Shown here one piece after another: positions 2,284-56,946 of a DNA stretch of 64,000 nucleotides. Source of the stretch: an uncultured Gammaproteobacteria bacterium (GTDB lineage: Bacteria > Patescibacteriota > Patescibacteriia > UBA1558 > UBA10009); assembly GCA_964588165.1 (NCBI GenBank), contig CAZPMS010000006.1, forward strand, positions 3,425 through 67,424. The letters are read 5' to 3'. Each line of letters begins with the position of its first letter. Positions within the stretch are counted from its first letter, which is position 1. Below the pieces are notes generated by a model. The model saw only the letters and a list, made by a program, of their open reading frames with translations, was not told the DNA's origin and did not search any database. The translations under genes were made by a program, and so were the position numbers.

Positions 2284-2403
2284 ATTTATTTTTATTTAAT
2301 TTTATTTTGTTTTATATCTATTTTTGATAGTATTTTAAATATATCAGTAACAATAAAGCTGTCAATTAATATCTTGTTAATAAATTGTGAAAAAATAACA
2401 CCA

Positions 2404-2497
2404 ATAACACACGATGCTCACGAATGGCTCACAGATAGCGCGAGGATATATGTGCGCTATTAGTGTAATATCAGTGAGCAACAGTATTATTAGTGAT
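2404..2497 (+). repeat. noncoding element F, copy 1 (homologous to 47986-48077)
   Basis: Shares the exact 15-mer GTGCGCTATTAGTGT (2452-2466 vs 48031-48045), AGCAACAGTrTTATTAGT (2477-2494 vs 48057-48074) and ATAACAC..GATGCTC in the same order and orientation. Confidence 0.6.
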
Positions 2498-2504
2498 TAT
2501 TCTG

Positions 2505-5075
2505 TTACTTATTAGCAGTGTCCTGCGAAAGCTTCATCCTTTCCAAAATCTCCTGTTCTACAATATTCCTGTCTCGGCCGTACTTTAAGCGCGAAGCTTC
2601 TTTAACTTTAAAAACGATTGATTTATCACCAGGCTTTGGCGGATAAGTTTTAATGTTAAAAGCCGGCACGTTCTGGTTATCTATTAATAATTTTAGATAG
2701 GCGTTAAACTTAGGAATATTTATTAAATCATATTCATTAAAAACAGGGTTAAACTGTTTAGCCACTAGTTCGGCATCATCCGGGCCTATCCTAAAGGAAG
2801 CCATTGTACCTACATTGCCAAAAACAGAATCCCTGATAGAAGTATCGTTGCCTTTTACCAGCTGGCCCACATATTGGTGCGCCACAGTTAAACTTAATTT
2901 ATATTTTCTGGCTTCTGATAAAATTATAGAAATGCTTTCGGTAATGAAATTTTGGAACTCATCTATATATAAATAATAATCGTGCCGCTTTTCTTCTGGC
3001 AATTCTACTCTGGAGAGGGCGGATATTAGAATCTTGCCAACAACTACCATGCCCAATAAATTTGCGGACATATCACCAATGGTCCCTTTGGCCAGTTTAA
3101 TTAGCAAAATCTTTTTCTTGTCCATTACTTCTCTAAAATTAAAAGAACTTTTTTGCTGGGCAATAATCGGCCTTAATAAATCGCTGGAGACAAATGGAGT
3201 TAATTTACTGGTGATATAAGGAACCATATTAGCCAATGATGCTTCGCCGCCGGCTTTTTCTGCCTCTTTCTCCCAAAAATCCCTTACCACCGGATTTACA
3301 CATTTAGAAAGCTTGTATCTCCTAAAATTAGGGTCGGCTAAAACCTTGGGTACTTCCAATAAAGTTGAGCCGGACACAGGATCTTCCATCATTAGCAGCA
3401 TGGCATTACGCATATACTGTTCAAACATTGGGCCACCGGTGGCTTTAAGGTCGTAGAGCTTATCAAAAATATTTATCATTTCGTTTATCACGAAAGTTTT
3501 TTGTTCCGGCGTGCTAAACTCCAGCATATTAAGCCCGATAGGCCTCTTGGTATCAGCTGGATCAAACAAAATTACATCGTCTACTCTGCCTTCGGGGATA
3601 TGCTCCATTACTGTTTCTATTAAATCTCCGTGGGGATCTATAACGCAAACGCCTTGGTTATTTTTAATGTCTTGGATTATCATGTTGGACATAAAAACAG
3701 ATTTACCGGTACCGGACTTGCCAATTATATACATATGCCTTAAGCGGTCCGAACTTTTAATTCTTATTGGCGCTTTTATTCCCCGATATAAATTCTCTCC
3801 CAAAATAAGGCCCTCTTTGGGTAAATTAAGAGGCGGCGTGGCCTTCCTGGCTTCTAACCAATTTATATTAGGTGTTTCTGAAGAAGGCAAAGGCAAGTGC
3901 CATAGGCTGGCCATTTCTTCAGCATTTAAAATTAAACTTTTTTTTGGAATAAAACTTCTATGGATAAAATTGGAGATCAATTTGGGAACTTTAATAAATT
4001 TTGCTTTTTTAAATCCATTGCCATATTCATAAATATTAAACTGAGAAAAAGCATTAATAATATTTTCTAAATAAGCCTCGGCCTTTTGCCTGTTTGGAGC
4101 AGAAACCACTACCCTTATGTTTGCTTCCATGCCTGCCTTGCTGGTTTTTTCTTCAATACCTTTTACCACCTCTGCTTCCATGGGAGAAAGCATTCTTCTT
4201 TCATCTGCTTCTTCTATATTTTTAGAAGCATCCTTTTTAGTTTTAAAAAAGCTTAAAGTGCCAACCACAGCGTTGGTTAGCTTATCAAAAATATTGCCTA
4301 AGCCTGCTTTCCTTAAAGCTACACTTAATTTTTTACCCTGTTGCATTTCTCTTGCTACAATTACTCCTTTGCGATGCCAGCTTTTATAAGCAGACCTAGC
4401 CACCAGCTGAATGGCTGCTCCTGATTCTTCACCTATTTTTGAAAAAGCATTGGTTAAAGCATTTAACGGATCGCTATCAGACTTTTTGTAAGTTTTAATT
4501 GGAAAAATAAAATCTCTGCCAAACTTTAAATAACTGCCAACCACCACGCCCTGGGCAGAAAAAATATTATAGTCTTCTAACTCCTCTATCTGTGCAAAAG
4601 GGTAAGAAGCATGGATTTGCTGTTCTAGGGTATCTTTTAAATAATCAGGAATGGCTACATAAAAATTAATCTTGCCATTTTGGGTTACGATTTCTACAGA
4701 AAAATGGTCTGATCTGCCAAAGATCCAGCTCTTTGTCCCTCTCTGGGCTTTAAGGCCGCCTAAAACAGAAAAAATGTTTTCCGCTACACCTATTTGTTCT
4801 TGGATTGTTTGGGGGGAATCATCGGCACCTTCTTTTTTTAAATTTTCTTTAGGCACGGTAATGAGCAAAATTTTCATTTTTAAAGCAGAAGGAACCTTAT
4901 TGCTTTTGGCTAAAAAACTTCTAACAATTAAAAAGGCGGTTATTAAAACCACCAACAAGATAAATATTAAAATAAAAGCTAAAAACCAAGTATTTTCCAA
5001 AAGGGCATTAGCCTGGGCAGTAAAAGGCGAATTTGACTCTATAACTATTTGCAAGGCAAACAAAGTTAAATACAT
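2505..5075 (-). CDS. VirD4/TraG-family (type IV coupling protein-like) P-loop NTPase with N-terminal membrane anchor
   Basis: 856 aa. N-terminal TM segments, Walker A IGKSGTGKS, Walker B-like YYLYIDEFQNF, then AHQYVGQL. Assignment by motif only. Confidence 0.65.
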   Translation of the reverse strand: MYLTLFALQIVIESNSPFTAQANALLENTWFLAFILIFILLVVLITAFLIVRSFLAKSNKVPSALKMKILLITVPKENLKKEGADDSPQTIQEQIGVAENIFSVLGGLKAQRGTKSWIFGRSDHFSVEIVTQNGKINFYVAIPDYLKDTLEQQIHASYPFAQIEELEDYNIFSAQGVVVGSYLKFGRDFIFPIKTYKKSDSDPLNALTNAFSKIGEESGAAIQLVARSAYKSWHRKGVIVAREMQQGKKLSVALRKAGLGNIFDKLTNAVVGTLSFFKTKKDASKNIEEADERRMLSPMEAEVVKGIEEKTSKAGMEANIRVVVSAPNRQKAEAYLENIINAFSQFNIYEYGNGFKKAKFIKVPKLISNFIHRSFIPKKSLILNAEEMASLWHLPLPSSETPNINWLEARKATPPLNLPKEGLILGENLYRGIKAPIRIKSSDRLRHMYIIGKSGTGKSVFMSNMIIQDIKNNQGVCVIDPHGDLIETVMEHIPEGRVDDVILFDPADTKRPIGLNMLEFSTPEQKTFVINEMINIFDKLYDLKATGGPMFEQYMRNAMLLMMEDPVSGSTLLEVPKVLADPNFRRYKLSKCVNPVVRDFWEKEAEKAGGEASLANMVPYITSKLTPFVSSDLLRPIIAQQKSSFNFREVMDKKKILLIKLAKGTIGDMSANLLGMVVVGKILISALSRVELPEEKRHDYYLYIDEFQNFITESISIILSEARKYKLSLTVAHQYVGQLVKGNDTSIRDSVFGNVGTMASFRIGPDDAELVAKQFNPVFNEYDLINIPKFNAYLKLLIDNQNVPAFNIKTYPPKPGDKSIVFKVKEASRLKYGRDRNIVEQEILERMKLSQDTANK

Positions 5076-5664: not shown

Positions 5665-5707
5665 TTAAATGTAAAATACTACACACTACCAACTACAAAC
5701 TAATACC

Positions 5708-6640: not shown

Positions 6641-6695
6641 ACTAGGTGGTAGTTAGTAGTTAGTAGATTCTTGATTAATTAAATATTGTTATATT

Positions 6696-7273: not shown

Positions 7274-7312
7274 ATCTGCGGGTAATCTGGCGGGTAATCT
7301 GTGTTATCTGCG
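7274..7312 (+). repeat. phased heptamer array A (ATCTGCG, ATCTGGC, ATCTGTG, ATCTGCG)
   Basis: Heptamers start at 7274, 7285, 7297 and 7306 (spacing 11, 12, 9). The array ends 7 nt before TTGACA at 7319. Confidence 0.75.
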
Positions 7313-8311: not shown

Positions 8312-8359
8312 TTTAAAAAAACTTAAAAATAAAAAATAGTAGATAGATATCCGCGGACT

Positions 8360-8409
8360 ATCAGTGATTAATCAGTGATCGTTCCGCGAATATCAGTGAA
8401 TTATCTATG
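8360..8409 (+). repeat. phased heptamer array B (ATCAGTG x3, ATCTATG)
   Basis: Heptamers start at 8360, 8371, 8392 and 8403 (spacing 11, 21, 11). The array ends 7 nt before TTGACA at 8416. Confidence 0.7.
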
Positions 8410-8415
8410 AAAAAC

Positions 8416-8444
8416 TTGACAAAATCAATAAATTATGCTAAATT
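8416..8444 (+). promoter_or_regulatory. sigma70-type promoter of islet ORF 3
   Basis: TTGACA (8416-8421), N17, TAAATT (8439-8444). The leader has the palindrome AATGTTgttgAACATT (8456-8471), ACATAGACAAAAC, and SD AAAGGAG. Confidence 0.65.
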
Positions 8445-14084: not shown

Positions 14085-14181
14085 ATTTTTATTATTAATT
14101 ATTAATAATTGATGATTAATGACTTATGATCATACTTATAATTAATTGATCATAAATCATAGTCCATAAATTAATTTCAAT

Positions 14182-25168: not shown

Positions 25169-25192
25169 AAATTTTAGCTACTAGATACAACC

Positions 25193-25222
25193 CCAGCCAA
25201 AGGCTGGTGAGCCTACGGCTCA
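25193..25222 (-). repeat. GC-rich twin-hairpin element, copy outside a tRNA
   Basis: Plus strand CCAGCCAAAGGCTGG + TGAGCCTACGGCTCA. The first hairpin is identical to that at 34325-34339. ATCTAG occurs on both sides. Confidence 0.7.
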
Positions 25223-32034: not shown

Positions 32035-32132
32035 TGGCAGGGATTTGCCCCGCTTTTCGTGAAAGGCGGGATAAAAACCCAGACCAACGGTTTTGGACCC
32101 AGCCCTTCGCGAAGGGCTGGGTGGAGACCCTC
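32035..32132 (-). pseudogene. ghost of tRNA-Trp 3' half carrying two GC hairpin insertions
   Basis: Minus strand GAGGGTCTCCA[CCCAGCCCTTCGCGAAGGGCTGGG]TCCAAAACCGTTGGTCTGGGTT[..CCCGCCTTTCACGAAAAGCGGGG]CAAATCCCTGCCA aligns to the tRNA-Trp anticodon stem through CCA. The 3' acceptor strand is mostly deleted. Confidence 0.75.
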
Positions 32133-32148
32133 AAAAATCATATTATTT

Positions 32149-32223
32149 TGGCAGGAGCGCTAGGATTTGAACCCAGACCAACGGTTTTGGAGACCGTCAT
32201 GCTACCATTGACACCACGCTCCC
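32149..32223 (-). tRNA. tRNA-Trp (anticodon CCA)
   Basis: 75 nt cloverleaf GGGAGCG..ACGGT-CTCCAAA-ACCGT..CTGGG-TTCAAAT-CCTAG-CGCTCCT-G-CCA. CCA is encoded. Confidence 0.9.
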
Positions 32224-33995: not shown

Positions 33996-34086
33996 GATGG
34001 AGCCGTTGTGCGGACTCGAACCACAAACCCCTTCCTTACCCCCGCAAGATTTCGTTTCACTCAATCTGCGGGGCAAGCATGGAAGT

Positions 34087-34202
<116 letters not shown>

Positions 34203-34318: not shown

Positions 34319-34371
34319 TCTACCCCAGCCAAAGGCTGGTCCGCCTCTGACGGAAACTGAGCTATGTCGGC
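34319..34371 (-). pseudogene. third tRNA-Thr-like 5' fragment (acceptor GCCGACA) with a twin hairpin in the D-loop
   Basis: GCCGACATAGCTCAGTT[TCCGTCAGAGGCGGA][CCAGCCTTTGGCTGG]GGTAGA, then decays. The perfect palindrome ATGTTTTTTTAAAAAAACAT (34279-34298) lies downstream. Confidence 0.65.
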
Positions 34372-36139: not shown

Positions 36140-36170
36140 AATATGATGATTGAAAACTGTTGATTGATGA

Positions 36171-36186
36171 TTGATGAATAATGATT
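36171..36186 (-). repeat. 16-nt upstream motif AATCATTATTCATCAA (copy 1, before fba)
   Basis: Exact 16-mer (plus strand ttgatgaataatgatt), also at 42099-42114 and 47831-47846. Each lies 10-32 nt upstream of a minus-strand start codon. Confidence 0.6.
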
Positions 36187-41064: not shown

Positions 41065-41123
41065 ATCTGCGGAATATCTGCGTGTCATCTGCGCCTGCCC
41101 GCCTATTGCGGGGTCAATCTGCG
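41065..41123 (+). repeat. phased heptamer array D (ATCTGCG x4) interrupted by a GC hairpin
   Basis: ATCTGCG at 41065, 41076, 41087 and 41117 (spacing 11, 11, 30). The CCCGC-CTATT-GCGGG hairpin lies between them. The array is 17-75 nt upstream of the minus-strand start at 41048. Confidence 0.75.
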
Positions 41124-42088: not shown

Positions 42089-42098
42089 GATTTAATAA

Positions 42099-42114
42099 TT
42101 GATGAATAATGATT
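42099..42114 (-). repeat. 16-nt upstream motif AATCATTATTCATCAA (copy 2, before the HD gene)
   Basis: Exact copy, 11 nt upstream of the ATG at 42088. Confidence 0.6.
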
Positions 42115-42123
42115 CATGACTGA

Positions 42124-46410: not shown

Positions 46411-46558
46411 ATAAAACTTTTAATTTCTTCTGAAGTTAATTCCCGCCAATTTCCAGGCGGTAAATCTTCCATTTTAATGCTACCAACTCTGATTCTTTTC
46501 AAACTGACCACTTCATAGCCTATATTTTCTACCATCCGCCTTATTTGCCTATTCCAGC
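46401..46558 (-). pseudogene. orphan 3'-terminal fragment of the rluB-type pseudouridine synthase gene
   Basis: An open frame without a start: GWNRQIRRMVENIGYEVVSLKRIRVGSIKMEDLPPGNWRELTSEEIKSFIKK*. A ~103-bp block (46456-46558) is near-identical to 47193-47295 inside the live gene. Confidence 0.85.
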
Positions 46559-46562
46559 CCTA

Positions 46563-46591
46563 TTGACAATATTTTTAATATATGATATTAT
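46563..46591 (+). promoter_or_regulatory. sigma70-type promoter of islet ORF 6
   Basis: TTGACA (46563-46568), N17, TATTAT (46586-46591). Starts 5 nt after the end of the duplicated rluB block. Confidence 0.65.
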
Positions 46592-46619
46592 TTATTATTC
46601 GATCTTTCTTTATTGACCA

Positions 46620-46640
46620 TTTAGTACTAATAGTACTAAA
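46620..46640. promoter_or_regulatory. 21-bp near-perfect palindrome in the islet-6 leader (operator-like)
   Basis: TTTAGTACTAATAGTACTAAA (two TAGTACTA palindromes) between the -10 and the SD. Confidence 0.45.
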
Positions 46641-46682
46641 CTTCAAAAGAGTGAAAAGTGCCAAACCACAGTGAGGGAAATT

Positions 46683-47096
46683 ATGAGGTATCCGAACTCT
46701 TTTCTGAAGAATGGTCCGCTTTATGTGGTCATTCTAGCTGCTCTCGTTTTCGTAACGGGGTTTGTTCAGTACAACAGCGACAGCCATCACTTCAGCATTC
46801 AGCACGAAACTTTCGTCGCAGGCGACAACCAGGCCTCATTGATCGGCTACACAGTTGCTGATCTGGAAAATTATGGGCAACGTTACCTTGAAGCCAAGTA
46901 TCCTGGGACATCCCAACTGCCACGCTTCGTAAACGTGGCATTAGGAATGATACCTGTACTACTTCTTCCACCAAACATTTTTTGGTCGCCAGCAATCATT
47001 CTTACATTTATGCTATGCGGAATCTGCGGAATATTGCTTACCGGAATAATTTCTAACCGCAATATGAATTGCCTCAAACCAACTTTATCACAATAA
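46683..47096 (+). CDS. hypothetical membrane protein (GC-rich islet ORF 6)
   Basis: 137 aa from the ATG at 46683, with SD GAGGGA (the track starts at GTG 46671). About 3 TM helices. Higher G+C. Confidence 0.5.
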   Translation: MRYPNSFLKNGPLYVVILAALVFVTGFVQYNSDSHHFSIQHETFVAGDNQASLIGYTVADLENYGQRYLEAKYPGTSQLPRFVNVALGMIPVLLLPPNIFWSPAIILTFMLCGICGILLTGIISNRNMNCLKPTLSQ

Positions 47097-47125
47097 ACAA
47101 TGAGAGGTACAAATTTTCTAAACGA

Positions 47126-47821
47126 TCATCCTCTGAAAGCCTCGGCAAATGCTGAGGCTTTTTCTTTTTCTGTAAGATTACGCCACTTACCGGGCGGTAA
47201 ATCTTCCATTTTAATGCTACCAACTCTGATTCTTTTCAAACTAAGCACCTCATAGCCTATATTTTCTACCATCCGCCTTATTTGCCTATTCCAGCCTTGG
47301 TGGACTACAATTCGTAATTTATTATCCGAAACTCTTAAAATCTTATCGGCCTTGGCAATTCCCTCCCTCAACTTGATGCCCTGTCTCAATTTTTTAATTG
47401 ACTGTTCATTAATTACTTGTTCAGTTTCTACTAAATATTCTTTTTCATGTTTGAACTTGGGATGCATTATTTTATTGGCAAAGTCGCCGTCATTAGTAAG
47501 GATAATCAAACCGGATGATTCTACATCTAACCTGCCAACCGGATAAATTCTTTCTTTAATATCAATCTTTTCTATAATATTATCTCTTTTTGTCTCATCA
47601 GTTGTGCAAATAACACCAACCGGTTTATGGTAAGCAATGTAAATTGATGACTGATGATTAATGATTAATTTTTTTCCGACCTTAACTTCATCAGTCTCAT
47701 CAACCTGGCTACCAAGTTCGGCTATCTCATCATTAATAAAAACCTTGTTTTGTTTTATTAGTTCATCAGCTTGCCTGCGTGAACAGTGTCCGCTTTCGGC
47801 TAAATATTTGTTTATTCTCAT
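47126..47821 (-). CDS. rluB: 23S/16S rRNA pseudouridine synthase, RsuA/RluB family
   Basis: S4 domain MRINKYLAESGHCSRRQADELI, catalytic VGRLDVESSGLIILTNDG. The C-terminal ~10 aa derive from islet sequence. Confidence 0.88.
   Translation of the reverse strand: MRINKYLAESGHCSRRQADELIKQNKVFINDEIAELGSQVDETDEVKVGKKLIINHQSSIYIAYHKPVGVICTTDETKRDNIIEKIDIKERIYPVGRLDVESSGLIILTNDGDFANKIMHPKFKHEKEYLVETEQVINEQSIKKLRQGIKLREGIAKADKILRVSDNKLRIVVHQGWNRQIRRMVENIGYEVLSLKRIRVGSIKMEDLPPGKWRNLTEKEKASAFAEAFRG
47139..47170 (+). terminator. terminator of islet ORF 6, embedded in the rluB 3' coding end
   Basis: GCCTCGGCA-AAT-GCTGAGGC followed by TTTTTCTTTTTC. Its reverse complement encodes the last residues (ASAFAEAFRG) of the live rluB gene. 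Confidence 0.7.
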
Positions 47822-47830
47822 ATTTAATGA

Positions 47831-47846
47831 TTGATGAATAATGATT
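47831..47846 (-). repeat. 16-nt upstream motif AATCATTATTCATCAA (copy 3, before rluB)
   Basis: Exact copy, 10 nt upstream of the ATG at 47821. Confidence 0.6.
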
Positions 47847-47854
47847 AATGAATT

Positions 47855-47936
47855 ATCTGTGAGTAATCCCTACCTTCCGGCAGGCAGGCGTGGGTCATCT
47901 GGTGGGTAATCAGTAAATATCTGTGACTTATCCGTG
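47855..47936 (+). repeat. phased heptamer array E (ATCTGTG, ATCTGGT, ATCAGTA, ATCTGTG, ATCCGTG) with a GC hairpin insert
   Basis: Heptamers start at 47855, 47897, 47909, 47919 and 47930. The hairpin CCTACCTTCCGGCAGGCAGG lies at ~47868-47887. The array abuts TTGACC at 47937. Confidence 0.65.
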
Positions 47937-47965
47937 TTGACCCTATTTTAACAGATTTAACTATA
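47937..47965 (+). promoter_or_regulatory. candidate promoter facing element F copy 2
   Basis: TTGACC (47937-47942), N17-19, ACTATA/TATATA. No plus-strand ORF follows. Confidence 0.4.
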
Positions 47966-47985
47966 TAAAACTAATTTTTTCACAT

Positions 47986-48077
47986 ATAACACGAATGCTC
48001 GCTATTCTTTTACAGATTACACACTAATCCGTGCGCTATTAGTGTTTTATCCGTAAGCAACAGTGTTATTAGTTATT
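47986..48077 (+). repeat. noncoding element F, copy 2 (possible sRNA or cis element)
   Basis: Homologous to 2404-2497 (see that feature). Lies between candidate promoter E and the islet-7 terminator. Confidence 0.55.
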
Positions 48078-48087
48078 TACGCATAAA

Positions 48088-48122
48088 TGAAAAAGCCACC
48101 CATTATAGAGATATGAGCGGCT
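48088..48122 (-). terminator. Rho-independent terminator of islet ORF 7
   Basis: Minus strand AGCCGC...GUGGCU stem followed by UUUUUC. Confidence 0.6.
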
Positions 48123-48150
48123 TATTATGTTCTTCTTTTGAGTTGACGTT

Positions 48151-48645
48151 TTACTTTTTCAGCTTCTTGCCGAAGCCTTCATTGTCAAGAAATGTGAGCG
48201 CTTCAATCCAGAGAATGGCCTTAGCCATTTCTTGTGCGACACACTTCACGTTTCGACCACCAGGACCGTAAGTGAATTTACTGACACCCAGCGGGTATTG
48301 AGTACTGAAAGAGGCAATAATACCCTCAGTCATTTTCTGTTTTCCGCTGGTCTCGATAATTTGAGTTACGATTGGCCACTTAAAGTCATCACGGGTATGG
48401 TTGGATACCACTGCCCCGACTACCATCCCAAGGTTCCAGTTGACATCGCGTAGATGATCAAGCCCTTTGCCCTCAGCAAGCCACTCGTTGACCACCGTTT
48501 TTACTATTGGCCAGCTCCATTGCCAGCAACCAACTCCCACCAGAAGCAAATCACGATTGTCATGTACTCGAATGCCAGCCTTAGAAAACTTTATAAAGTT
48601 TTCTTTTAAAGCCCTTTCCTCTCGATTCTTCTCTTTGAAAGTCAT
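48151..48645 (-). CDS. hypothetical protein (GC-rich islet ORF 7)
   Basis: 164 aa, preceded by AGGAGGAG 3 nt upstream... of the ATG. Higher G+C. No family recognised. Confidence 0.55.
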   Translation of the reverse strand: MTFKEKNREERALKENFIKFSKAGIRVHDNRDLLLVGVGCWQWSWPIVKTVVNEWLAEGKGLDHLRDVNWNLGMVVGAVVSNHTRDDFKWPIVTQIIETSGKQKMTEGIIASFSTQYPLGVSKFTYGPGGRNVKCVAQEMAKAILWIEALTFLDNEGFGKKLKK

Positions 48646-48703
48646 CTTCTCCTCCTAACAATAAGGGGATTATGCTGCGCCACCATTAGCACAGTCTGTT
48701 TAT

Positions 48704-48732
48704 AATGTAACATATTTTTATATTTATGTCAA
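48704..48732 (-). promoter_or_regulatory. sigma70-type promoter of islet ORF 7
   Basis: Minus strand TTGACA (48732-48727), N17, TACATT (48709-48704). Confidence 0.65.
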
Positions 48733-48747
48733 GTTTTACTGGATATC

Positions 48748-48777: not shown

Positions 48778-48954
48778 TGGCTGCCGGGGCTGGATTTTCA
48801 CCCCGCCGTATTGGCTGTGGAGACAGGACTCGAACCTGTAACATTCGCATTAACAGTGCGACGTTCTACCATTGAACTACTCCACAACTAATGTAGATAG
48901 ACGAAAATACTGCCCGCCAAAGGCGGGTCCGCCCTTGGCGGAAACTACCCGGCA
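48778..48954 (-). pseudogene. outer (disrupted) tRNA-Asn-like gene enclosing the intact tRNA-Asn
   Basis: The 5' piece is TGCCGGG-TA-GTT[twin hairpin 48913-48942]CAGTA (48954->48908). The 3' piece is ...CCCGGCA-G-CCA (48809->48778). The acceptor halves TGCCGGG/CCCGGCA are perfectly complementary. The anticodon arm is missing. Confidence 0.7.
48812..48886 (-). tRNA. tRNA-Asn (anticodon GUU)
   Basis: 75 nt TGTGGAG-TA-GTTC-AATGGTA-GAAC-G-TCGCA-CTGTTAA-TGCGA-ATGTT-ACAGG-TTCGAGT-CCTGT-CTCCACA-G-CCA. A U1-A72 pair also occurs in E. coli tRNA-Asn. Confidence 0.9.
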
Positions 48955-48977
48955 AACTTGTTCGCCGAAGAGGCGAA

Positions 48978-49003
48978 ATAAAAAACCCGCCGAACTTGGC
49001 GGG
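48978..49003 (-). terminator. Rho-independent terminator downstream of the GerMN lipoprotein gene
   Basis: Minus strand CCCGCCAAGTTCGGCGGG followed by TTTTTTAT. Confidence 0.7.
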
Positions 49004-51759: not shown

Positions 51760-51788
51760 ACCGCCTCTTTACTAAGTTGCGGTTTTTA
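51760..51788 (+). terminator. terminator after the mini-ORF
   Basis: ACCGC...GCGGT stem followed by TTTTTAT. Overlaps the purN stop codon. Confidence 0.5.
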
Positions 51789-52370
51789 TTTCGCCTCTTC
51801 AGCGAACATTTTAATGCCTTCTAAAATAACTTGCTGTTCTAATTTTTGAACCTTATTTCTTAATGACTCTACGGTTTCATTTTCAACAATTTTAACTTTT
51901 TTTTGAATAATGGTTGGGCCCCCGTCCAAATCTTCATTTACAAAATGCAAAGTGCAACCGCTTTCTTTTTCTTTATTAAATAAAACTTCTTTATGAACAT
52001 CCAAATCCATACCCGGATATTTAGGCAACAGCGAAGGATGAATGTTCATTATTCTATTTTTATACGGATTGATAATAACTGATGTCATTATCCGCATATA
52101 ACCAATTAGTACTATCAAATCAATTTTATGCTCCTGGCAAACCTTTAAGCATTCTGCATCAAATTTTTCTCTGTTTTTATTTTTTTGATTAATGTAGATG
52201 GTATTAATACCGGCTTTACGGGCACGTTCCAAAGCATAACAATCTTTTTTATTGGATAAAACAAACTTTAAATCAGCAAACTCAAGATTACCAGATTCCT
52301 TAGCGTCAATTATAGCTTGTAAATCTGTTCCTTTGGTTGAAGCAAATACTGCTAAATTGATTTTATTCAT
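51786..52370 (-). CDS. purN: phosphoribosylglycinamide formyltransferase
   Basis: 194 aa. LAVFASTKGTDLQAII, MNIHPSLLPKYPG, and the ESGCTLHFVNEDLDGGP pattern. Confidence 0.92.
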   Translation of the reverse strand: MNKINLAVFASTKGTDLQAIIDAKESGNLEFADLKFVLSNKKDCYALERARKAGINTIYINQKNKNREKFDAECLKVCQEHKIDLIVLIGYMRIMTSVIINPYKNRIMNIHPSLLPKYPGMDLDVHKEVLFNKEKESGCTLHFVNEDLDGGPTIIQKKVKIVENETVESLRNKVQKLEQQVILEGIKMFAEEAK

Positions 52371-56839: not shown

Positions 56840-56946
56840 AAATGATTAAATTACCAATTAACAATTTCCAATAACCAATAAAATTCCAATTCTAAATTTA
56901 ATAATTTTTAATTTATTGGATATTGGTTATTGTAAATTAGATATTA

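Follow-up and report, generated by a model that had tools for sequence, protein, structure and literature searches.

Small palindromic repeats of intergenic DNA, such as the REP/BIME elements of enterobacteria, the Correia elements of Neisseria and other MITEs, can act as transcriptional terminators. Response regulators of the OmpR/PhoB type recognise direct-repeat operators, for instance the Pho boxes, in which 7 conserved bases and 4 variable bases give an 11-bp phase. TIGR-Tas arrays are common in CPR bacteria. A TIGR array consists of 36-nt units in which a box C and a box D flank two ~9-nt spacers, and it lies beside a Nop-domain Tas gene (bioRxiv 10.64898/2026.09.09.750476).

The locus described here lies at positions 47,855 to 48,732 of a 64,000-nt stretch of DNA, to which we refer as the window, and contains a palindromic repeat (F) that abuts an array of phased heptamers. 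Our preferred reading, to which we assign a probability of roughly 45%, is that two unrelated, lineage-specific families of non-coding repeats, the F hairpin and the heptamer array, have come to lie side by side. A relationship with TIGR-Tas was considered and rejected: the arrays found here repeat every 11 nt and leave only 4 bases variable, F is base-paired over nearly its entire length and lacks unpaired 9-nt spacers, and Pfam searches revealed neither a Nop nor a Tas gene.

The window has a G+C content of ~35% and carries most of its genes on the minus strand. Its source is an uncultured Patescibacteria (CPR) bacterium that is Komeilibacteria-like; among named organisms, Candidatus Komeilibacteria are the closest, with RluF proteins at most 59% identical to the one encoded in the window. 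The same strain is represented by more than 10 metagenome contigs, and because these are 99.8–100% identical to the window, population variation is uninformative.

Two copies of F are present in the window, F1 (2404–2497) and F2 (47986–48077). Their homology, already proposed in the initial annotation, is borne out by a local alignment score of 64 versus a maximum of 22 in 500 shuffles. The alignment of the two copies is convincing for one arm only. The 47-nt right arm (48031–48077 in F2 and 2452–2498 in F1), which contains two TATTAGT(G) direct repeats and an ATCNGTR heptamer, is 87% identical between the copies, and it is to this arm that firm homology is restricted. The left arms are marginally alike, 11 of 500 shuffles reaching the same score, and the overall divergence is roughly 25%. 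Since the flanks of F1 and F2 are not homologous, and these flanks include the array and the promoter next to F2, the array and the promoter are outside the repeated unit. F has terminal inverted repeats (ATAACAC...GTGTTAT) and can form a full-length hairpin in both copies. Folding and alignment identify F1 (2398–2500, minus strand), with a long hairpin spanning 2399–2495, as the intact copy, and F2 (47980–48080, minus strand) as an eroded copy of the same ~100-bp imperfect palindrome. F is described here as a lineage-specific palindromic repeat of ~95–100 bp.

In both copies the fold is stronger on the minus strand than on the plus strand. For F1, the predicted folding energies are -40.4 kcal/mol (z -7.1) on the minus strand and -32.3 kcal/mol (z -4.3) on the plus strand, and the minus-strand fold is the most stable of 6394 GC-corrected 104-nt folds in the window. 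For F2, these energies are -24.6 and -19.5 kcal/mol, respectively (z about -2.2 to -2.4), corresponding to ranks 183 (minus) and 1046 (plus) among the same folds. Inspection of the folds indicates that F2 resembles F1 from which the tip of the hairpin has been deleted, and that the left arm of F2 pairs with a shifted stretch of the conserved right arm. The far better conservation of the right arm than of the left hints at a sequence-specific role that the model of a plain hairpin does not explain. The possibility that F is a gene for a small protein was discarded: frames of 33 codons in F1 and 10 codons in F2 share ATGCTC and then go out of frame with each other, and no ribosome-binding site was seen by inspection.

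F1 is located at the end of a VirD4/TraG-like ATPase gene (2505–5075, minus strand; Pfam DUF87, TrwB and DUF8128), which is a core CPR gene with more than 3500 homologues, in the main from Patescibacteria. On the minus strand, the F1 hairpin begins 10 nt past the ATPase stop codon, and a U-run, UUAUUUUUU, comes after it; the U-rich tail directly 3' of the hairpin, as read from the sequence, is UUAUUUUUUCAC (2387–2398). Beyond the tail lies a strong promoter that belongs to the following gene; it reads TTGACA-16-TATATT, has a TG upstream (2338–2365, minus strand) and matches the consensus at 11 of 12 positions. F1 alone thus has the stable hairpin and U-run after a stop codon that define an intrinsic terminator; F2 is followed by AUGUGAAAAAA, which is an A-run rather than a U-run. 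Judged from its sequence and position, the F1 hairpin probably works on the gene-sense strand as a terminator or insulator, most likely of the ATPase transcript, ahead of the promoter of the next gene. What speaks against this reading is that the F1 stem is rich in A+T at its base, in contrast to the G+C-rich terminators that are usual in this genome.

The initial annotation placed F1 next to both the ATPase gene and islet 1. The ATPase gene does adjoin F1, but the neighbour on the other side (1750–2283) is not an islet: it is a conserved 177-aa gene whose product shares 89% identity with its counterpart in a relative, and its promoter is kept in the related locus L092. The actual insertion near F1 is that of positions 683–1750. 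In L092 and L093, which encode ATPases 76% and 71% identical, respectively, to that of the window, the ATPase gene is directly followed by a methyltransferase-like gene of 173 or 174 aa, and then by a 176-aa gene and dnaX. The methyltransferase-like gene is missing from the window, which instead contains 233 bp (2314–2546) made up of the diverged 3' end of the ATPase gene, F1 and the promoter region. Based on this comparison of gene order, F1 marks a site of gene loss and not an islet. A derivation of F from the lost methyltransferase-like gene itself was rejected, as no similarity exists in DNA or protein.

At the other locus, F2 and the array lie upstream of a gene encoding an rluF-type pseudouridine synthase (47126–47821, minus strand; Pfam S4 and PseudoU_synth_2). 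A Germane-domain gene abuts or overlaps rluF in the relatives L012 and L013; in the window the two genes are separated by 1335 bp. This lineage-specific insertion contains a tRNA-Asn(GTT) gene (48812–48886, minus strand), F2, the array and the islet-7 cassette, which has a promoter and a terminator of its own. Both the islet-7 ORF (48151–48645, minus strand) and the terminator assigned to it were confirmed. The ORF encodes an orphan protein of 164 aa without a Pfam match, for which a single homologue (66% identity) was found among 5.8 billion proteins; its AlphaFold model is all-helical with a pLDDT of 57, which is too low for a fold search. A promoter scan placed its promoter, TTGACA-17-TACATT with an upstream TG, at 48704–48732 on the minus strand, and this region is homologous to the promoter region of the homologue, located on L011. 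The intrinsic terminator (48093–48123, minus strand) is formed by an 11-bp stem followed by UUUUU (-14.6 kcal/mol, z -3.4). On the plus strand, the fold of 48086–48150 has a z-score of only -0.54, its stem is interrupted and a clean U-run is absent, and the terminator is thus predicted to be functional on the minus strand only. F2 lies behind this separate, conventional terminator, at ~0.75 kb from the tRNA gene.

Because the insertion has cut rluF off from its ancestral upstream gene, rluF needs a new promoter within 47822–48090. No minus-strand promoter for rluF passed a sigma-70 scan. The best candidate read from the sequence is an extended -10 element, TGtTAAAAT (47945–47953, minus strand), that might serve as a replacement promoter of rluF.

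The initial annotation described F as a conserved element and stated that a lack of additional copies or of conservation in relatives would refute its proposal; neither was encountered in ~81 kb of this genome, in the related loci retrieved or in three public collections, which, as far as these sequences reach, is the refuting outcome. The ~81.5 kb formed by the window and the extra flank on L094 and L098 contain the same two copies as the window, with none in the 17.5 kb of extra flank. Moreover, F was found neither in 81 more distant loci searched with blastn-short, nor in L092 and L093 when these were compared directly with the F regions, nor near the closest rluF relatives (L104–L106; 63–69% identity and different upstream neighbours), nor on the contig carrying the sole homologue of islet 7. 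In L104, the closest relative, a stretch of 13 nt upstream of rluF matches F2 in the opposite orientation; this match was unconvincing once multiple testing was allowed for. A strict F pattern gave zero matches in collections of metagenomes and genomes, and a looser one gave two chance matches in metagenomes and zero in viral contigs; the same pattern matches all ten same-strain loci, so that the source samples are evidently missing from the metagenome collection.

Together, these features allow F to be compared with the REP/BIME, Correia and MITE families. Like them, F is non-coding, ~100 bp long and an imperfect palindrome with inverted termini, is confined to intergenic spacers, is limited to one lineage, in which its copies have decayed to different degrees, and provides in one copy a 3' hairpin followed by a U-run. 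Unlike them, it was seen in two copies versus tens to hundreds in the known families, conservation is concentrated in one arm, and neither a cognate transposase nor a target-site duplication was recognised, the latter by inspection of the sequences flanking F. The IS1595-type transposase, the only one found and located outside the window, was rejected as a source of F because its element has unrelated ends (GGGAATGTCCTAGTTTAAGG...). Since both copies occupy spacers made by recent rearrangements, F behaves as a small mobile or recombination-borne palindromic repeat of the MITE or REP kind, and either mode could have spread it. If F acts at all, it would do so as a long 3' hairpin in transcripts of the minus strand, which is the gene-sense one; F2, as an eroded copy without its hairpin tip, has probably little function left.

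The heptamer array next to F2 extends from 47855 to 47936 on the plus strand, with units at 47855, 47866 (truncated), 47897, 47909, 47919 and 47930. Five ATCWGYG heptamers had been counted initially, of which those at 47855 and 47919 are strict matches, whereas those at 47897 (ATCTGGTG), 47909 (ATCAGTA) and 47930 (ATCCGTG) deviate from the pattern. Across the window the heptamer is enriched, with 33 matches found versus 14 expected, a number reached in none of 100 shuffles. At least six arrays of ATCYGYG units with an 11-bp phase, in which 7 bases are conserved and 4 vary, were identified, all on the plus strand; five start in the window, at 7274, 8349, 14182, 41065 and 47855, and one at 18899 on L098, ahead of guaB. 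Four of the six abut a -35 box, and three directly precede TTGACA-N17-TAAnnT promoters of orphan plus-strand ORFs with Shine-Dalgarno sites. The guaB array is located within the 5' UTR and ends 3 nt ahead of the ATG. Two minus-strand genes flank the array at 41065, which has been inserted into a spacer that measures ~16 nt in L012. This array shares with the one at 47855 a related G+C-rich insert, and both end 17–34 nt upstream of a minus-strand start codon. In the array at 47855 the insert occupies 47869–47896 and, together with the next unit (GCGTGGGTCATCTGGTG), resembles GCGGGGTCAATCTGCG of the array at 41065. The five other arrays occur without any F, and no such arrays were present in the fetched loci of other organisms.

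Because the combination of array and -35 box recurs ahead of ORFs with Shine-Dalgarno sites, the label of cis-regulatory module, one of those originally offered, is a reasonable one. It applies to the array and the promoter, which are a separate, recurring module distinct from F. The sequences of the array family suggest a protein-binding operator array, which a DNA-binding protein would contact on one face of the helix. As in OmpR/PhoB-type operators, direct repeats of a heptamer and a 4-nt spacer follow an 11-bp phase, with four to five units per array, and the arrays tend to lie beside the -35 region (four of six). Unlike those operators, the arrays are upstream of an intact TTGACA and do not replace it, the guaB array is in the 5' UTR directly ahead of the start codon, some arrays are interrupted by G+C-rich inserts, and all six share one chromosomal orientation. 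Neither was a winged-helix regulator identified: no candidate for an array-binding protein was found in the window, which encodes a receiver-only response regulator alone. The heptamers were also compared with CIRCE, CtsR and DnaA boxes and the PurBox, none of which fits. The uniform chromosomal orientation of all the arrays is not predicted by simple operator models.

At the F2 locus, the array would most plausibly control initiation in the new spacer upstream of rluF, by way of a new minus-strand promoter for rluF, a weak plus-strand promoter diverging from it, or both. We consider a restart of rluF transcription, or a weak or relic promoter, more plausible here than the gene for a small RNA or antisense regulator that had been proposed on the basis of the plus-strand sequences.

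According to that proposal, an array-activated plus-strand promoter would produce an sRNA from F2, or an RNA antisense to the islet-7 mRNA, and F would be a family of regulatory RNAs. A promoter-like sequence facing F2 and islet 7 is indeed present on the plus strand (47937–47967), with TTGACC at 47937–47942 and TATATA at 47962–47967; the layout of array and -35 box is the same as in the three promoters that drive real ORFs, and motifs of the type TTGACM-N16-19-TAWWWW are ~3-fold enriched in the window, mostly ahead of genes. As in cis-antisense and sRNA genes, this motif is followed by ~170 nt of non-coding DNA converging on a protein-coding gene. No credible ORF follows it: the plus-strand ORF of 10 codons, given initially as the longest, is real (at 47995), although a mechanical search also returns one of 52 aa (48113–48271), which starts within the terminator, is antisense to the islet ORF and has no convincing ribosome-binding site ahead of it, and which we judged not credible. 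Moreover, F2 can form a plus-strand hairpin (z -2.2). However, the spacer of the promoter is exactly 19 nt and the final T of the -10 box is missing, unlike the other array promoters, which have a 17-nt spacer and a TAAnnT -10 box, and the sequence was not called by the sigma-70 scan. A credible terminator on the same strand is absent at F2, and the predicted plus-strand RNA as a whole (47972–48150) folds on a par with shuffled sequences (z -0.47). Nor does the second copy help: no plus-strand promoter adjoins F1, and a plus-strand RNA made from F1 would continue in antisense through the ATPase gene. In both copies the opposite strand gives the better fold, and the repeated unit does not include the array and promoter. 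Rfam searches, of the whole window at gathering thresholds and around both F copies at permissive E-values, yielded nothing but tRNAs and chance matches to microRNA hairpins; no homologues were found in the related loci examined, and two copies are too few for covariation. F2 as a small-RNA gene therefore receives little support, and we regard the proposal as improbable; a plus-strand transcript, if present, would be unterminated read-through antisense to islet 7 and not a discrete, conserved sRNA. A broader version, in which the arrays define a regulon comprising the new orphan genes together with the housekeeping genes guaB, rluF and a ybaK-like gene, and its regulator drives a plus-strand RNA through F2 that silences islet 7 by antisense transcription, seems very doubtful to us; if it were true, the shared orientation of the arrays would reflect the direction of replication or head-on transcription.

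It is also conceivable, though we think it rather unlikely, that F is a neutral, decaying relic, either a dead MITE or a segmental duplication, that has no function in either copy, and that the hairpin and U-run of F1 are incidental. The low copy number, the divergence of roughly 25%, the lost hairpin tip and unremarkable fold of F2, and the lack of F in relatives all agree with such a relic, as do the several other short repeat and hairpin families held in the spacers. Chance is less easily reconciled with F1 being the most stable fold in 64 kb at the exact position of a terminator, and uniform neutral decay would not leave one arm 87% identical and the other barely above chance. In yet another reading, F would be an att- or attC-like recombination site, or the scar of an islet insertion or deletion, and the heptamers would be arm-type sites for an accessory protein. 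Relative to the related loci, both copies sit exactly where a gene was lost or DNA was inserted; a tRNA gene lies close to F2, the imperfect palindrome of F has AAC...GTT close to its termini, and ATCNGTG-like heptamers occur within it in inverted orientation. Read against the integron consensus RYYYAAC/GTTRRRY, however, the ends of F (TATAAC/AATAAC...GTTATT) do not fit, and no integrase or recombinase genes are present in the window and its 17.5-kb flanks. Neither islet 1 nor the cassette at 46560–47125 is bordered by F, the cassette showing a 136-bp target duplication instead; the islets are dispersed and have their own promoters, and five arrays lack F. The homologue of islet 7 in another organism is likewise without F, and with F1 at a site of gene loss, an association of F with islets as a rule, as suggested in the initial annotation, does not hold. 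We consider a recombination site very unlikely. Two abutting repeat families, with F1 as a probable terminator or insulator and the array as a separate module, remain the reading that we prefer.

As a single locus, a lineage-restricted palindromic repeat beside a promoter module matters little, and there is no sign of a conserved RNA. Its surroundings tell more, and show a small CPR genome in the course of remodelling tightly packed operons: short, self-contained gene cassettes, tRNA genes, repeat arrays and hairpins have been inserted into spacers that are 0–16 nt long in relatives, and the downstream genes therefore need new promoters. To our knowledge, no regulon has been characterised in this lineage, and the arrays of phased heptamers represent a concrete candidate for the regulon of a transcription factor in these uncultured bacteria. 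Besides F and the arrays, the spacers of this genome also house several other families of short repeats and hairpins.

All six phased ATCYGYG arrays, candidate operators built of heptamer units at an 11-bp phase, have the plus orientation on the chromosome, yet about 90% of the genes are on the minus strand. These arrays are located at 7274, 8349, 14182, 41065 and 47855 of the window, and upstream of guaB at 18899-18937 of L098, a locus of the same genome that provides additional flanking sequence. The guaB gene lacks a Shine-Dalgarno sequence, and its ATG is positioned 3 nt past the end of the array. G+C-rich palindromic motifs of the TTCGCGAA type (GGTTCGCGAA, TTCCGCGAAC) recur 5' of the divergent guaA/guaB promoters (L098 18670-18770), and one copy of this type is inserted within the array at 8349 (8381-8392). 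These palindromes may constitute a second regulatory motif.

Degenerate tandem repeats with a period of 7 nt were also observed directly 5' of start codons, at six sites in the window (5678-5702, 14094-14130, 36144-36186, 42093-42119, 47825-47853 and 56849-56879). Their units are TCATTAA/TCATCAA (on the gene strand), CTACAAA and AATTACC, and inspection of the genes behind them did not reveal Shine-Dalgarno sequences. Similar repeats are present within 3' spacers at 6649, 10946, 49128 and 56914. The period-7 repeats could be G-poor, unstructured leaders.

The promoters of the orphan cassettes have in common an extended -35 module (AAAACTTGACA...), which is located at 1463-1493, 8410-8440 and 48712-48737 of the window, at 13639-13660 of L094, another locus of the same genome, and at 153-185 of L011, the contig carrying the sole islet-7 homologue. 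Moreover, the promoter of islet 7 and that of a 73-aa orphan gene located outside the window share an identical run of about 20 nt. The orphan cassettes appear to carry along, or reuse, promoter modules.

The 3' end of rluF is duplicated (46424-46559 versus 47161-47296; 136 bp, 89% identity), and the two copies lie on either side of an inserted cassette (46560-47125) that comprises an orphan ORF (46671-47096) and a promoter of its own (TTGACA-17-TATTAT). The arrangement resembles the outcome of an insertion in which the end of the target gene was restored. Partial tRNA-like duplicates are present about 100 nt from the intact genes for tRNA-Trp (32069-32097, beside 32149-32223) and tRNA-Thr (33998-34040, beside 34104-34179). 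These duplicates may mark past integration events at tRNA genes. Outside the window, some 1.4-3.3 kb from its start, lies an IS1595-family element (L094 13669-15589); it encodes a DDE transposase and a P63C-domain protein, and has terminal inverted repeats of about 24 bp (GGGAATGTCCTAGTTTAAGGTAGT) and an 8-bp duplication (ATTAATTA). Comparison of window positions 2314-2546 with two loci of relatives (L092 3502-4121 and L093 12572-13096) showed that a methyltransferase-like gene, present in the relatives 3' of the gene for the VirD4-like ATPase, has been lost in the window lineage.

Other short G+C-rich hairpin/terminator sequences are shared by distant spacers with 92-96% identity (48959-48984 and 51783-51808; 25190-25214 and 34322-34346), and therefore the palindromic repeat F is not the only dispersed hairpin family. 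A metagenome contig of the same strain ends at window position 47977, 3-9 nt short of the left edge of F copy F2 (47986-48077), which, as a single case, would be consistent with the repeat having interrupted the assembly.
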